DNA of 64,000 nt from an uncultured Dehalococcoidaceae bacterium (lineage in GTDB: Bacteria > Chloroflexota > Dehalococcoidia > Dehalococcoidales > RBG-16-60-22): positions 3,182-67,181 of the forward strand of contig CAZBMB010000005.1 in the NCBI GenBank assembly GCA_964493435.1. Reading direction: 5' to 3'. The notes under the pieces are model-generated. The model was not told the DNA's origin. It was given only the letters and a program-made list of their open reading frames with translations, and did not search any database. Positions within the stretch are counted from its first letter, which is position 1, and every line of letters begins with the position of its first letter. The translations under genes and the position numbers were made by a program. Of the stretch, positions 8,880-39,685 are shown piece after piece.

Positions 8880-8952
8880 GCCCCTGTAGCTCAGGTGGAC
8901 AGAGCACCAGCCTCCGGAGCTGGGTGCGGGCGTTCAAGTCGCCCCAGGGGCG
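8880..8952 (+). tRNA. tRNA-Arg(CCG)
   Basis: cloverleaf: acceptor GCCCCTG/CAGGGGC, anticodon arm CCAGC-CTCCGGA-GCTGG, T-loop GTTCAAG; CCA not encoded. Confidence 0.95.
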
Positions 8953-8976
8953 CTTTAATTTGTTCAGGAGAGTGCG

Positions 8977-11988: not shown

Positions 11989-12012
11989 CCAGTTATGGTA
12001 ATATCATAGTGG

Positions 12013-12090
12013 CGGGGTGTGGCGCAGTCCGGTTAGCGCGCATGGTTTGGGACCATGAGGTCGGAGGTTCAAATCCTCTCACCCCGACCA
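12013..12090 (+). tRNA. tRNA-Pro(TGG)
   Basis: CGGGGTG/CACCCCG acceptor, CATGG-TTTGGGA-CCATG anticodon arm, encoded CCA. Confidence 0.96.
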
Positions 12091-25369: not shown

Positions 25370-25445
25370 GCGGGAGTAACTCAGCTGGCAGAGTCCCTGC
25401 CTTCCAAGCAGGTTGTCGCGGGTTCGAGTCCCGTCTCCCGCTCCA
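25370..25445 (+). tRNA. tRNA-Gly(TCC)
   Basis: GCGGGAG/CTCCCGC acceptor, CCTGC-CTTCCAA-GCAGG anticodon arm, encoded CCA. Confidence 0.96.
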
Positions 25446-27983: not shown

Positions 27984-28058
27984 GGGCTCGTAGCTCAGTG
28001 GCAGAGCTGGCGGCTCATAACCGCTCGGTCGCAGGTTCGAATCCTGCCGAGCCCACCA
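27984..28058 (+). tRNA. tRNA with CAT anticodon, probably tRNA-Ile2 (lysidine) rather than Met
   Basis: GGGCTCG/CGAGCCC acceptor (paired G1-C72, so not initiator), arm GGCGG-CTCATAA-CCGCT resembling Ile2 tRNAs, encoded CCA. Ile versus Met identity is inference. Confidence 0.9.
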
Positions 28059-28187: not shown

Positions 28188-29384
28188 ATGAAGCAGAATC
28201 AATGTCAGTTTTTGATTGTGGGGGCGGGTATTACCGGCCTGGCCATTGCCCGCGAGCTGGTCAATAGGGGAGTGGGGGATATCATGATCCTGGAAAAGGA
28301 GAATGAACTTGGCCGGCACGCCAGCGGACGGAACAGTGGTGTGCTGCATGCCGGGATGTACTACACACCTGACACGCTGAAGGCCAAATATTGCGTGGAC
28401 GGCAACCGCCTGATGAAGGAGTTCTGCCGGCAGAAGAAGCTCACCCTGCACGAGACCGGCAAAGTTATCCTGGCAGCCGGGCCTTCTCAGATTGAAGCGT
28501 TGTATGAATTGAAACGCCGTGCCGATTTATGCGGCGCCCGTGCTCATATTATCGATAATAAAAAGCTGCATGAGCTCGAGCCATATGCCGCAGACAGCGA
28601 TGAAGCACTTCATTCACCGGACACCGCCGTAATCAAACCAGTGGAGGTGCTGCAGGCGCTTGAAGCGGAGCTGGTGGCATCGGGGAAGGTTACCGTTTAC
28701 TATGGAGCGACCTTCCGCAACCGGGCCGGGGATAACCGGGCGGAGACCTCGCGGGGGGTTATCAAATTTGAAAAACTGCTCAATGCTGCCGGCGCCTATG
28801 CTGACCGCATCGCGCACCAGTTTGGCCTGGCGAAGGAATACCGGCTGTTGCCCTTTAAAGGAACTTACAAGCAACTAGCGCACGACCGCTCATTCCTTGT
28901 TCGCAGCAACATCTACCCAGTTCCCGACCTGCGGACTCCTTTTCTGGGCGTTCATTTTACCCGTAGCGCCGACGGCGAGGTGCTGGTCGGACCGACAGCC
29001 ATGCCCGCGTTTGGACGGGAAAATTATGGTATTCTAAGCGGCTTTGACCGGGAGTCATTATCTATCCTGATGCGTGATGCATTGCTACTCCTTGTAAACC
29101 CCTCATTCCGCCAGGTTGCCCGGACCGAGCCCAAGAAATATCTGAAGAGGTTCGTTTACAAAGAGGCCAGGAAGCTGATGCCGGAGCTGAAACCTCAGGA
29201 CATTACCGAATCAGGCCACGTTGGTGTGCGCCCTCAGCTAATCCATTGGCCCAGCAAGCAACTGGTCATGGATTTCATCGTGCTGGATGAAGCCGATTCC
29301 CTGCATATATTGAACCCGATATCACCGGCGTTTACAACGTCTCTGGCATTTGCCAGGGATATGACCGATAAACTGCTGGGGTAG
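28188..29384 (+). CDS. lhgO: L-2-hydroxyglutarate oxidase-like FAD oxidoreductase
   Basis: IVGAGITG, HASGRNSGVLHAG, IYPVPD..PFLGVHFT, GVRPQ and NPISPAFT motifs. Confidence 0.85.
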   Translation: MKQNQCQFLIVGAGITGLAIARELVNRGVGDIMILEKENELGRHASGRNSGVLHAGMYYTPDTLKAKYCVDGNRLMKEFCRQKKLTLHETGKVILAAGPSQIEALYELKRRADLCGARAHIIDNKKLHELEPYAADSDEALHSPDTAVIKPVEVLQALEAELVASGKVTVYYGATFRNRAGDNRAETSRGVIKFEKLLNAAGAYADRIAHQFGLAKEYRLLPFKGTYKQLAHDRSFLVRSNIYPVPDLRTPFLGVHFTRSADGEVLVGPTAMPAFGRENYGILSGFDRESLSILMRDALLLLVNPSFRQVARTEPKKYLKRFVYKEARKLMPELKPQDITESGHVGVRPQLIHWPSKQLVMDFIVLDEADSLHILNPISPAFTTSLAFARDMTDKLLG

Positions 29385-29425
29385 AAGTTTACATAATAAT
29401 TGATATTTACAGGTGGAGGTGAACC

Positions 29426-29752
29426 ATGAACAAAGCATTGGTAATCTGGAACATAGTAATCACCATAGCTCTGGCCGCGGCAGTATTCAGCGGCTGCACC
29501 AGCCTTGACCCGCAGTTAGCCAGCGCGGTCAAAGGGGTGAAAGACAACCGGGCATTGATAGAGCAGGTGGTCAACCTGGCCAACCAGAACAGGGAAGCGA
29601 TCAGCAACATGAATAACGAAATTACCAAGAACACGTTAACTGTTGCCAGTCTGCAGACCACCACCGAAGCGGCAATCGCTGCGGTACAGACATCATTCCA
29701 GCAATACGTGCAGCAGTATGTTCAGGCATATGTCGCCGAAGCTGTGCAGTAG
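29426..29752 (+). CDS. hypothetical lipoprotein with coiled-coil
   Basis: signal peptide ending in lipobox FSGC; RBS GGAGGT; heptad-like N/Q-rich body. Confidence 0.7.
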   Translation: MNKALVIWNIVITIALAAAVFSGCTSLDPQLASAVKGVKDNRALIEQVVNLANQNREAISNMNNEITKNTLTVASLQTTTEAAIAAVQTSFQQYVQQYVQAYVAEAVQ

Positions 29753-29764
29753 ATAGCAATATAT

Positions 29765-29995
29765 TTACGCCGGCAGACCTTCTATATGTTCCCAGACGTC
29801 CCTCTGCCCGGCCAGCGCGTTCTGGTATTCATACCAGTAATTGAGCATTTTTTCGTTTTCCGGGTTGAACCGGTCTATCTTGGCCGGGTCTTCAAGGCTG
29901 CGGTCAACGTAACGGCGCCACCGCTTGGCCCATTTCTCCACCTCGGCGTTGGCTTTGGCCAGCTCTTTGAATAATTCCTCTCTGTCTCCCATCAC
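29765..29995 (-). CDS. hypothetical protein (76 aa, charged, helical)
   Basis: RBS GGGAGG before GTG/ATG; plausible protein composition; converges on the lipoprotein gene. Confidence 0.55.
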   Translation of the reverse strand: MMGDREELFKELAKANAEVEKWAKRWRRYVDRSLEDPAKIDRFNPENEKMLNYWYEYQNALAGQRDVWEHIEGLPA

Positions 29996-30203
29996 GCCCT
30001 CCCGTTATGCCCGCTTTGTAATACAGTAGGGGAGCAAGCCGCATAAACAGAGACATCCTGTTATCAGCGGCTTTTCCAGTAATATTTTATTCAATAACTT
30101 GGGAAATAGCTATCCCGGGAAAATAAACTTCAGATGGGAAACCCCGCGGGCTAAAAGTTTTTTGATACCGTAAAGAAACTTTTTATGTAATCGGGAGGGC
30201 GTG
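29993..30203. repeat. 12-bp perfect inverted repeat pair enclosing 187 bp
   Basis: CACGCCCTCCCG (29993-30004) and CGGGAGGGCGTG (30192-30203). Confidence 0.8.
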
Positions 30204-30230
30204 GTGTAATTATGTTAATCTATACGTGTG

Positions 30231-30258
30231 GCATTACATAACATATATAGTGCGCCCC
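30231..30258 (-). other. candidate dif (XerC/D recombination) site
   Basis: minus strand GGGGCGCACTA-TATATG-TTATGTAATGC; 19/28 identical to E. coli dif as recalled (GGTGCGCATAA-TGTATA-TTATGTTAAAT); intergenic, at a gene-orientation convergence. Confidence 0.5.
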
Positions 30259-30338
30259 ATAATAATGCGGGTAAGAGGGTTTACATAAATTACCACGGCG
30301 GTGAGGAAAAACAAAATTACATGTATCTACGGAGGGTA

Positions 30339-31007
30339 TTATCTGGAGTTCATTCTACTGTAACTAATTATATGCTGCACGACCGCAGTTAGAAAGACCA
30401 AGGTAAACATTAATTGAGTGGACAAAATCAAATATCCGCAAAGATTTGTCGGTTCAAAGTCAGAGCCTATGGCTATAGCATTTCCAATGCTATATCGCAA
30501 GGCATCTTTAAGACAACTGATACTATTGAAAGAGCGGCTATAAATGTAGGCGAGCAAAGCGTAAGCTATGATTATTTCCATATATCCCATAAAGACTAAA
30601 ACCAATGATCTGTCGGTATCAACAGGTTTCCATTTATACGGAACACCACCGAGGACAAATTGGCTGAACCATGATTGGAATATTTCGGCTAATCTAATAC
30701 TTACCAGCCAAACTACCCAACCAGCCGGAATAAGTAAAAATTTAGAGAAATGGAATGTATTGTTAATGAATACAAACAAAAAGGTCATTAGCCATAACAA
30801 AACCCATATATCGACAAAGATATATCCTAATTTTTTACGCCATTCTTGTAAAAGAAACGAAATAAATCTGCTAGGGCTAATAACGCTAAAGAAACCAAAT
30901 ATACATTTAAGGAATTCAATGATAAAGCCCCTATTCCAACATCTAGGTTTATATCTGTTTTCTAACCAATATTCTCTTAATAATTGTCTAAAAGTCGAGC
31001 AACACAT
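30339..31007 (-). CDS. AT-rich hypothetical membrane protein with a degenerate ion-channel-like C-terminus
   Basis: several TM segments; DALRYSIGNAIAIGSDFEP sits between two TM helices like a pore loop; visibly more AT-rich than flanking genes. Confidence 0.65.
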   Translation of the reverse strand: MCCSTFRQLLREYWLENRYKPRCWNRGFIIEFLKCIFGFFSVISPSRFISFLLQEWRKKLGYIFVDIWVLLWLMTFLFVFINNTFHFSKFLLIPAGWVVWLVSIRLAEIFQSWFSQFVLGGVPYKWKPVDTDRSLVLVFMGYMEIIIAYALLAYIYSRSFNSISCLKDALRYSIGNAIAIGSDFEPTNLCGYLILSTQLMFTLVFLTAVVQHIISYSRMNSR

Positions 31008-31042
31008 ATATGATTTTCCTTAATGCACTTGATTATATCACA

Positions 31043-31062
31043 GAAAATGTGCGCACATTTTC
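31043..31062. repeat. perfect 20-bp palindrome
   Basis: GAAAATGTGC|GCACATTTTC. Confidence 0.85.
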
Positions 31063-31081
31063 AAAGTCATCGGGGCGTTTA

Positions 31082-31152
31082 AGAGGGGCGCAGCCCCTCT
31101 CCCTAAAAATTCCCCCTCCCTTGCCAAGGGAGGGGGATTAAGGGGGTGGGTT
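31082..31152. repeat. twin-hairpin REP-like element, copy 1
   Basis: AGAGGGGC-GCA-GCCCCTCT; TCCCCCTCCCTT-GCC-AAGGGAGGGGGA; tail AGGGGGTGGGTT. Confidence 0.75.
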
Positions 31153-31322
31153 GTAAAGAAAAACTTCCAATAACCCCCAAAACAGGAAAACCCGCCCTGA
31201 CCCGAAATATCCCGAAACCTGCCCAGAAATCCAGCCCCTGAAGTCCTTATAAATAGCAAACCATTCAAAAAGAATTTAAGGGGCCTAGATTTTGATTACA
31301 GAGCGTCATTTTTAGAGGGGGT

Positions 31323-32426
31323 CTAAAAGGTGGTTGCCGGGGTGGTAATTTCCTGCCCGATAAGGGCCAGCAGTTGGTCCAGACCCCATTTTCGTGCCGC
31401 GGACACCAGCACCGTCTTTTCGCCGGCGGACTGGTCAGCCAGAAACTCGGCGGCATCCGTTTCGTCCCATTCCCGGTCATCCGGCAACAAAAGGTCTATC
31501 TTGTTCAGGACAGTAATGCAGGGCTTACCGGCCAGGGCAAGGTCGGACAATATCTCCTCAACCGTCTGGCATTGCTCGGCGGCGTCCGGCGATGACAGGT
31601 CGACGACATGCAGCAGCAATGAGGCCTCATCCAGTTCCTCCAGTGTTGCCCGGAAGGCGGTAACGATTTCCGGCGGCAGCTTGTGGATGAAGCCGACGGT
31701 GTCCGTCATCAATATCGTCCTGCCGTCGGCAAGTTTCAGCCGCCGGGTGGTGGGGTCAAGGGTAGCAAAGAGCTTATCCTCGGTGAAGACACCGGCCTGG
31801 CAGAGGGCATTGAGCAAGGTGCTCTTACCGGAGTTGGTATAGCCCACTATTGATACCACCGGTATCCCGCTTTTGAGTCGCTTCTGGCGATAGAGGGCGC
31901 GGTGTTTTCTCACCTCTTCAATCTGCCCTTTCAGGCGCTGTATCTTACGCCTTATGAGCCGCCGGTCGGTCTCAAGCTGCGATTCACCGGGACCCCTGGT
32001 GCCAATACCGGCTCCCAGCCTCTCCAGATGGCTCCACTGCCCGGCAAGCCGGGGCAACAGGTACTGGTGCTGCGCCAGCTCCACCTGCAGCTGGCCTTCG
32101 CGGGTGCGGGCACGCCGGGCAAAAATGTCCAGAATCAGCGCCACGCGGTCAATGACCTTCACCTGCAACGCCTCTTCCAGGTTGCGCTGCTGCCGCGGCG
32201 TCAGCTCATCGTCAAAGATGACAACGTCGTAGCCGACCTGTTCTTTCTGGGCTGTTAATTCCTCGAGTTTCCCTCTGCCGACGTAATGCGTGTTTGAAGG
32301 CGCCGGCAGTTTCTGAATTGTTTTGCCGACCACGCTGGCGCCGGCAGTGCTGGACAGCAGTGATAGTTCCTCAATTGATGCCCTGGCCGACCACCTGCCC
32401 GTGGTCTCTCTTGACTCCACCGCCAC
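31323..32426 (-). CDS. hflX: ribosome-splitting GTPase HflX
   Basis: ELTPRQQRNLE, QVELAQ, GTRGPGE, VGYTNSGKST, LFATLDPT, TDTVGFI and NKID motifs; start may lie upstream at ATT 32477. Confidence 0.95.
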   Translation of the reverse strand: MAVESRETTGRWSARASIEELSLLSSTAGASVVGKTIQKLPAPSNTHYVGRGKLEELTAQKEQVGYDVVIFDDELTPRQQRNLEEALQVKVIDRVALILDIFARRARTREGQLQVELAQHQYLLPRLAGQWSHLERLGAGIGTRGPGESQLETDRRLIRRKIQRLKGQIEEVRKHRALYRQKRLKSGIPVVSIVGYTNSGKSTLLNALCQAGVFTEDKLFATLDPTTRRLKLADGRTILMTDTVGFIHKLPPEIVTAFRATLEELDEASLLLHVVDLSSPDAAEQCQTVEEILSDLALAGKPCITVLNKIDLLLPDDREWDETDAAEFLADQSAGEKTVLVSAARKWGLDQLLALIGQEITTPATTF

Positions 32427-39579: not shown

Positions 39580-39653
39580 GTCCCTGTAGCTCAGATGGAC
39601 AGAGCGGCTGCCTTCTAAGCAGCGGGTCGTGGGTTCGAATCCCGCCAGGGACG
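39580..39653 (+). tRNA. tRNA-Arg(TCT)
   Basis: GTCCCTG/CAGGGAC acceptor, GCTGC-CTTCTAA-GCAGC anticodon arm, GTTCGAA T-loop. Confidence 0.95.
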
Positions 39654-39685
39654 CTTATTAATGTTTATTTTGGAGGTATTTTATC

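Follow-up and report, generated by a model that had tools for sequence, protein, structure and literature searches.

The closest described counterparts of the locus reported here are the XerC/XerD-dif systems, the IMEX elements, the pdif modules and the sites known as XDS. In E. coli, the XerC arm of dif is GGTGCGCATAA. IMEX elements, such as CTXphi, TLCphi, VGJphi and the gonococcal genetic island, have a dif-like site at either end and contain replication or phage genes. The dif sites of E. coli and of B. subtilis, which in the latter are served by CodV and RipX, are 28 bp long with an 11-6-11 layout (Kono et al., 2011; PMC3025954). Their inner arms are fixed, whereas the central region and the outer arm bases vary (PMC9226527). 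In the pdif modules of Acinetobacter, which are found on plasmids and chromosomes, full XerC/D sites in inverted orientation lie on both sides (PMC5790767; PMC12907356). Finally, the XDS of B. subtilis and S. aureus, as summarised in PMC9226527 from Karaboja 2021, unload SMC, and are described in that summary as a XerD arm, a spacer of 5-6 bp and an inverted inner XerD arm.

In the window, by which we mean the whole stretch of 64,000 nucleotides that was analysed, a first-pass annotation had proposed a chromosomal dif site, whose parts are as follows.

30231-30258, minus strand: candidate 28-bp dif, GGGGCGCACTA-TATATG-TTATGTAATGC, with an 11-6-11 layout
30248-30258, minus strand: XerC-type arm, GGGGCGCACTA
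30242-30247, minus strand: central region, TATATG
30231-30241, minus strand: XerD-type arm, TTATGTAATGC
30222-30229, minus strand: semi-conserved motif ACACGTAT, abutting the XerD arm

The 28-mer was found exactly as annotated and, also as annotated, it is intergenic and in the most AT-rich part of the window: ORFs at 29765-29995 and 30339-31007, both on the minus strand, lie on either side of it, and the kilobase 30001-31000 has a GC content of 0.37, compared with 0.47-0.58 in the rest of the window. It occurs once in the window when up to three mismatches are allowed, and none of 100 shuffles contained such a match. In most Dehalococcoidales-type loci the XerD arm is directly followed by ACACGTG or ACGAGTG. 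Rfam gave no match at the site, and a search of the literature for its sequence found no published report.

The likenesses of the arms, on which the first-pass annotation was built, could be confirmed as well, since the XerC arm is identical to that of E. coli at 8 of 11 positions and the XerD arm starts with TTATGTAA. In the sites listed by Kono et al. (2011; PMC3025954, supplement), GCGCAC of the XerC arm is common to the Shewanella and Citrobacter rows, and TTATGTAA opens the XerD arm in Firmicute and Chlorobi rows. A dif matrix made from 60 distinct sites of this supplement (Proteobacteria, Firmicutes, Chlorobi and Elusimicrobia, with the Dehalococcoides rows left out) gave the site the best score in the window, namely 9.7 bits, a value reached by 8.7% of window shuffles (p ~0.09); the lowest-scoring training site has 21.7 bits. 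In addition, TTATGTAA occurs eight times in the window against 1.2 expected, with four of the copies inside 29389-30288. Given this frequency of equal scores among shuffles and the local enrichment of TTATGTAA, the original argument was a fair lead rather than evidence: by itself, the likeness of the window site to known dif sites is within chance and not convincing.

Judged from sequence conservation, the 28-mer is nevertheless very probably the chromosomal Xer recombination site (dif) of the class Dehalococcoidia, a reading that stands because of comparison, namely an exact core, a discrete block and a canonical SAR202 form, and not because of resemblance. First, the 22-nt core GCGCACTATATATGTTATGTAA is exact in 14 loci from 13 GTDB species-representative MAGs, all labelled Dehalococcoidia, Dehalococcoidales, SAR202 or Chloroflexota, compared with about 0.07 matches expected by chance in the 596 Gb of this search, and it is exact in 92 metagenome contigs. 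These 106 further loci belong to Dehalococcoidia wherever named and have one core per contig throughout. Second, when 102 distinct flank strings are compared, the information content peaks at the core and decays within 3-4 nt on either side, giving a conserved block of about 28 nt that, like known dif sites, has T at position 28; beyond this block the flanks are unalignable, even among relatives. In two sister samples, other community members align to the window over the site only. Third, the SAR202-type form, ATTGCGCACTA-TATATG-TTATGTAAAGT, from a subgroup with a GC content of 0.36-0.43, scores 24.9 bits on the matrix of 60 sites, inside the training range, and it shares an identical XerD arm with Chlorobium tepidum and Lactobacillus acidophilus. 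For the commonest Dehalococcoidales form the score is 14.4 bits. With an exact core found once per contig in 106 loci, a discrete block of about 28 bp and distant members that are canonical, the annotation's proposal of a dif for this lineage is strongly supported.

An independent sample was provided by seven loci retrieved through HflX protein homologs and not through the motif; the homologs retrieved with HflX, or with the family0 proteins described below, come from MAGs and metagenome contigs only. Six of the seven have the site, with exact cores in four, and no recombinase gene was found near it in these loci. One variant has TATACG as its central hexamer, and the other reads GGGGCGCACTA TAGTTG TTATGTCAGAT, with a change in the XerD arm given as TTATGTCA. 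Thus, the changes are confined to the central hexamer and position 7 of the XerD arm, and the inner arms are fixed, while the outer arm bases vary across all loci. The seventh locus, a 325-kb contig (L113, from ERZ909605) with a 73% identical HflX and PAC2 genes after hflX, has no dif-like site within 10 kb of hflX, and the link between hflX and dif is therefore not universal. The sole variant of the XerC arm was found by a slot-gene search, beside a homolog of the 222-aa gene introduced below (L140, 1003-1030, GGCGTACTACT TATATG TTATGTAAGGT); its XerD arm and central region are intact and its XerC arm is shifted by 2 nt, such that it may be a decayed site or a site with an 8-bp spacer.

Of the 13 MAGs, 12 have a single core and one, H23_307, has two. 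In H23_307 the copies are on two contigs (L008 and L009), which share the 15 nt to the right of the site but differ to its left, and four contigs (L002, L008, L015 and L141) end within 60 nt of the site or within a slot. Together, the assembly ends at the site and the double copy in H23_307 point to strain heterogeneity or to a repeat at dif.

The place of the site is defined by the following gene.

31323-32426, minus strand: hflX, last gene of the conserved row dxs-pgk-tpiA-miaA-dapF-aminotransferase-hflX

The site is 3' of hflX in each of the 61 loci whose left flank is long enough, with hflX on the XerC side, and along the hflX strand the XerC arm comes first, followed by the XerD arm. In the window its neighbours are housekeeping genes, with the row from dxs to hflX on one side and a FAD oxidoreductase (DAO) gene plus a 108-aa ORF on the other. 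In 14 SAR202-like loci the 28-mer follows the hflX stop after 0-21 nt and is itself followed, after 2-12 nt, by the end of a convergent gene, and the gap of about 35-60 nt between the two convergent stops is filled by the site, which, being placed between the ends of convergent genes, is neither promoter nor leader in these loci. Over 23 lineages, the coding bases that point at the site amount to 93% on the hflX side and 61% on the other side. In Dehalococcoidales, the distance from hflX to the site is 205-2568 nt, with a GC content of 0.36-0.46 versus 0.45-0.63 for hflX, and a further 200-4586 nt separate the site from the next conserved gene. These spaces, or slots, and their surroundings contain the following genes in the window.

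30339-31007, minus strand: gene for a 222-aa protein in the XerC-side slot, a predicted membrane protein with five TM segments; GC content 0.35, pointing at dif
29765-29995, minus strand: 76-aa ORF in the XerD-side slot, GC content 0.55
29426-29752, plus strand: 108-aa lipoprotein gene, with a signal peptide and an FSGC lipobox

That the site is flanked by orphan genes, as previously annotated, holds for the first two, with six homologs of the 222-aa protein in 5.8 billion (5.8e9) proteins and none of the 76-aa ORF in 107 loci; neither of these slot ORFs has a Pfam, PADLOC (defence) or PHROG (phage) match above threshold. It does not hold for the conserved lipoprotein gene, which has syntenic homologs in at least 12 loci (51-75% identity), followed by the DAO oxidoreductase gene (28188-29384), and which, because of this synteny, is core genome and not cargo. 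Homologs of the 222-aa protein in L137-L140 are on the XerD side of dif, again pointing at it. An AF2 model of this protein has a pLDDT of 68.7, and its top Foldseek matches, all of them P-loop channel transmembrane domains with E values of 0.04 or worse, weakly suggest a pore-loop-channel-like fold for the C-terminal M1-P-M2 part.

Turnover of the slots is evident among close relatives. In three of them (L002, L003 and L014) HflX is 94-96% identical, yet the bodies of the slot ORFs are wholly different in two and absent in the third. In their alignment, about 330 nt after hflX are kept, including a hairpin equivalent to the terminator of the window, followed by the promoter, and past the slot body similarity returns at a TTATGTAAA element and the site. 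The slot genes thus have a conserved external promoter in common and completely different bodies. The XerD-side slot of relatives holds other genes or is empty. Replaced or empty in close relatives, and deviant in composition, as is characteristic of IMEX elements and islands, the slots beside dif are real hot spots of gene turnover.

In 42 loci, to which the window does not belong, the space between hflX and dif is occupied by one slot family, termed family0 (e.g. L002, 7321-7866; L003, 2052-2579). Among 5.8 billion proteins, 125 belong to it, every one of them hypothetical and from this clade, with no Pfam match and a median pairwise identity of 34%. They combine an N-terminal transmembrane helix and a conserved RERLLNEIIEWA motif with a hypervariable middle and a EEATKIKTRDIS tail. 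The family0 promoter, GTTAACATAA-N19-TGGTATAAT-N6-ATG, is of the extended -10 type, and a leaderless mRNA is predicted from it.

Several short elements accompany the site and the slots in the window.

30281-30288, minus strand: direct XerD-arm-like half-site TTATGTAA, 33 nt upstream of the core, on the XerC side
30183-30190, plus strand: inverted XerD-arm-like half-site TTATGTAA, on the XerD side
30210-30218, plus strand: inverted XerD-arm-like half-site TTATGTTAA, on the XerD side
29386-29396: half-site or -10-like element TTATGTAAACT upstream of the 108-aa gene, kept in L004 and L014
31030-31061, minus strand: promoter of the 222-aa gene, with an extended -10 box TGATATAAT (31032-31040)
31044-31061, minus strand: perfect 18-bp palindrome AAAATGTGCGCACATTTT, just upstream of this -10 box
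31111-31137, minus strand: G/C-rich intrinsic terminator hairpin of the hflX operon, TCCCCCTCCCTTGGCAAGGGAGGGGGA, a 12-bp stem followed by a T run

The direct half-site recurs as TTATGT[AT]A at -35 to -31 in 64 of 77 unique Dehalococcoidales-type loci, with eight other direct copies in about 1 kb per locus. An inverted half-site is present at +22 to +152 in 16 of 70 relatives, versus about one expected, and an inverted copy is also found upstream of the family0 promoter. On the opposite strand TTATGTAA reads TTACATAA, a -10-like sequence that recurs upstream of genes, and the octamers correspond to -10-like TTACATAAT. The XerD-arm-like octamers may be promoter elements or extra XerD sites comparable with XDS; inspection of the half-sites found no XDS-like palindromic structure. 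The second-best match to the dif matrix in the window, at 29386-29413 on the minus strand (CCTGTAAATATCAATTATTATGTAAACT, 8.0-15.1 bits), has a perfect Firmicute-type XerD arm without a XerC arm; it precedes the lipoprotein gene by about 30 nt and also reads as -10-like TACATAAT.

As for the promoter of the 222-aa gene, relatives have a TGGTATAAT promoter at the equivalent place and GTTAACATAA where the window has the palindrome, which may be an operator. The segment 31006-31172 is multi-copy in the source and sister metagenomes, with a depth of 71-151 versus 21 and many loose ends, which suggests that the hairpin region is a dispersed REP- or MITE-like element.

The first-pass annotation went on to read 29.4-31.3 kb as Xer-acquired cargo, and in that form this part finds no support. 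Both 29426-29752 and about 31040-31322 are conserved core DNA, and no second site, recombinase or phage gene was found. Since the 108-aa gene is not cargo, the variable DNA amounts to about 0.8 kb on the XerC side (~30259-31040) and about 0.45 kb on the XerD side (~29765-30230), and not to 1.9 kb. None of the contigs of the 106 loci has two cores, nor do relatives have a consistent second site. As a second dif or IMEX junction, 31030-31057 was rejected: it scores -9.5 bits, consists of the -10 box plus the palindrome and has no counterpart in relatives. Also rejected was a read joint from 30259 to 31672, considered as an excision product, which turned out to be a split alignment of a relative's contig; its shorter side is 25 nt of the conserved core, it is gone when the site alone is the reference, and similar piecewise joints come from another divergent contig. 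The five tRNA genes of the window, all on the plus strand, are Arg-CCG (8880-8953), Pro-TGG (12013-12090), Gly-TCC (25370-25445), Met-CAT (27984-28058) and Arg-TCT (39580-39654), and none adjoins the variable DNA.

Among 2.9 million viral contigs of IMG/VR, the exact core has no match, and matches to degenerate arms number 23, approximately the chance level, with most of them in one unrelated low-GC phage family. As one weak lead, a tailed-phage contig that encodes a large terminase (L130, IMGVR_UViG_3300033145_000309, 40 kb) has GGGGCGCACTA TTGTTA TTATGTAAAAA at 12008-12029, within a 2.4-kb stretch without long ORFs, and this sequence could be a dif-like attP or a product of chance. Xer-mediated capture of the slot genes is possible but unproven.

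It is doubtful, though worth stating, that the dif-side spaces of Dehalococcoidales form an order-wide system of integron-like cassette slots that draws on the machinery of dimer resolution. The cassettes would be small, promoter-less or leaderless genes with a XerD-arm-like half-site at the end, and a Xer-dependent reaction, which might involve XerD only, would take them up or swap them next to dif, with those of the two sides in mirror orientation. That the 28-mer would primarily be the attachment site of an integron-like or dif-module-like cassette capture through the half-sites, with dimer resolution secondary or absent, we regard as improbable. The AT-rich, rare and mutually unrelated genes of both flanks would suit such a role, as would the fact that one rare family is found both to the left and to the right of the site and in every case points towards it, but SAR202-like genomes retain an identical site without any cassettes. 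Half-sites at a fixed spacing, unrelated gene bodies behind a conserved external promoter and assemblies that break at the site also agree with capture; against this, there is no recombinase gene nearby and no contig with two full sites, and the 42 slot genes between hflX and dif are one diverging family with conserved end motifs, which fits diversification in place.

A dif of the class would be expected at the replication terminus, and the terminus location of the site would follow from what dif sites are. In the window, the cumulative GC skew goes up over 8-17 kb, peaks at 17-22 kb and stays on a plateau to 31 kb, after which it goes down. The plateau ends at the site, and the skew goes from plus to minus over the window, which is the sign expected for a terminus, yet it mostly tracks the coding strand and does not place a switch at the site. 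In a regression on 62 genes (GC3, GC or AT skew) the replication term has the right sign, with F ~5-6, and break points at 4-19 kb fit at least as well as the site. No xerC, xerD or other tyrosine recombinase gene and no ftsK was found among the approximately 45 window ORFs scanned, which is a statement about the neighbourhood, as these genes need not be near.

The regression, which places no break at the site, would allow the 28-mer to be a Xer-type site other than the main dif, either a secondary one or what remains of an element integrated long ago by hflX, and Kono et al. (2011; PMC3025954) predicted another dif sequence for Dehalococcoides, near mid-genome. We consider this quite improbable. 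A remnant would be unlikely to stay identical at 22 of 22 positions across a class whose proteins are 40-60% identical, and the three Dehalococcoides predictions (e.g. TTTTTTAATTCTGTAAATTATTTAAATC) score 3.4, -2.4 and 1.8 bits on the dif matrix, compared with 9.7-24.9 bits for the forms reported here, which are present in one copy per contig. These published predictions differ from the class-wide site and may need revisiting.

Highly improbable, in turn, is that the conserved sequence is another kind of signal, namely an operator, a promoter, a Ter-like replication terminator or a 3' element of the hflX mRNA. The constant position after hflX in the 61 loci with enough flank would be natural for such an element; the 11-6-11 layout with an exact canonical XerD arm would not, nor would the lack of an Rfam match, nor the fact that hflX-linked variants alter the central hexamer and position 7 of the XerD arm. 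For a promoter speak the -10-like reading of the TTACATAA strand, found again upstream of genes, and a weak promoter-like match that overlaps the site, but the count of promoter-like matches is not above that of shuffles, and in SAR202 the site is between two gene ends. Lastly, chance resemblance in AT-rich intergenic DNA, to which the matrix score taken alone would lend itself, is refuted by the 106 independent exact cores in one bacterial class.

If the 28-mer is the dif of Dehalococcoidia, what is known of the family predicts that the left arm, GGGGCGCACTA, would be the binding site of a XerC-type recombinase and the right arm, TTATGTAATGC, that of a XerD-type one, and that strand exchange across the 6-bp TATATG would resolve chromosome dimers at division. 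The site appears to be locked to one place in the class, directly 3' of the hflX operon and between converging transcription units. In SAR202-like members nothing else would be placed beside it, and in Dehalococcoidales the two short spaces would have become gene slots, which seem to take small, AT-rich, fast-evolving or replaceable genes that are oriented towards the site and mostly encode putative membrane proteins. In the window these would be the 222-aa gene on one side and the 76-aa ORF on the other. The slots would turn over for the most part through recombination that uses the conserved flanks as anchors, and now and then through non-homologous replacement.

These results provide a well-supported dif consensus, GCGCACTA-TATATG-TTATGTAA, for a large and mostly uncultured class that takes in relatives of organohalide respirers and marine SAR202, and for which the sole published predictions (Kono et al., 2011; PMC3025954) are different and weaker. 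In MAGs, the site may serve as a marker of the replication terminus, for replichore assignment, growth-rate estimates and assembly finishing, and it would explain the breaks of assemblies at this locus. Moreover, the link with hflX, together with hypervariable, inward-pointing genes and XerD-like half-sites, makes it a tractable place to study terminus-proximal gene turnover.

Compared with known systems, the locus shares with IMEX elements the strain-variable and compositionally deviant DNA beside dif; unlike them, it has one site, single genes of 76-300 aa without phage genes, and variable DNA on both sides that points inward. As in pdif modules, one or a few genes are tied to Xer sites and exchanged between replicons or strains, but here the slot gene is flanked by XerD-arm-like half-sites of 8-9 nt only, beside one full site. 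Extra XerD-arm sequences near dif without a XerC arm are reminiscent of XDS, with the difference that the half-sites have no inverted partner and coincide with -10-like sequences. From known dif sites, the one described here departs in that its XerC arm ends in CTA and not in TAA, and in that the Dehalococcoidales form has GGGG and variable outer bases, which is the reason why this form scores below the published range; it is also fixed beside one gene, hflX, class-wide, has a half-site at -33 and is known from sequence alone. What it has in common with them is the length of 28 bp and the 11-6-11 layout, a XerD arm, TTATGTAA(A)GT, that is the same as in Chlorobi and Lactobacillus, a XerC core, GCGCA(C), as in Proteobacteria, fixed inner and variable outer arm bases, and an intergenic location on which genes converge, with one copy on each contig.
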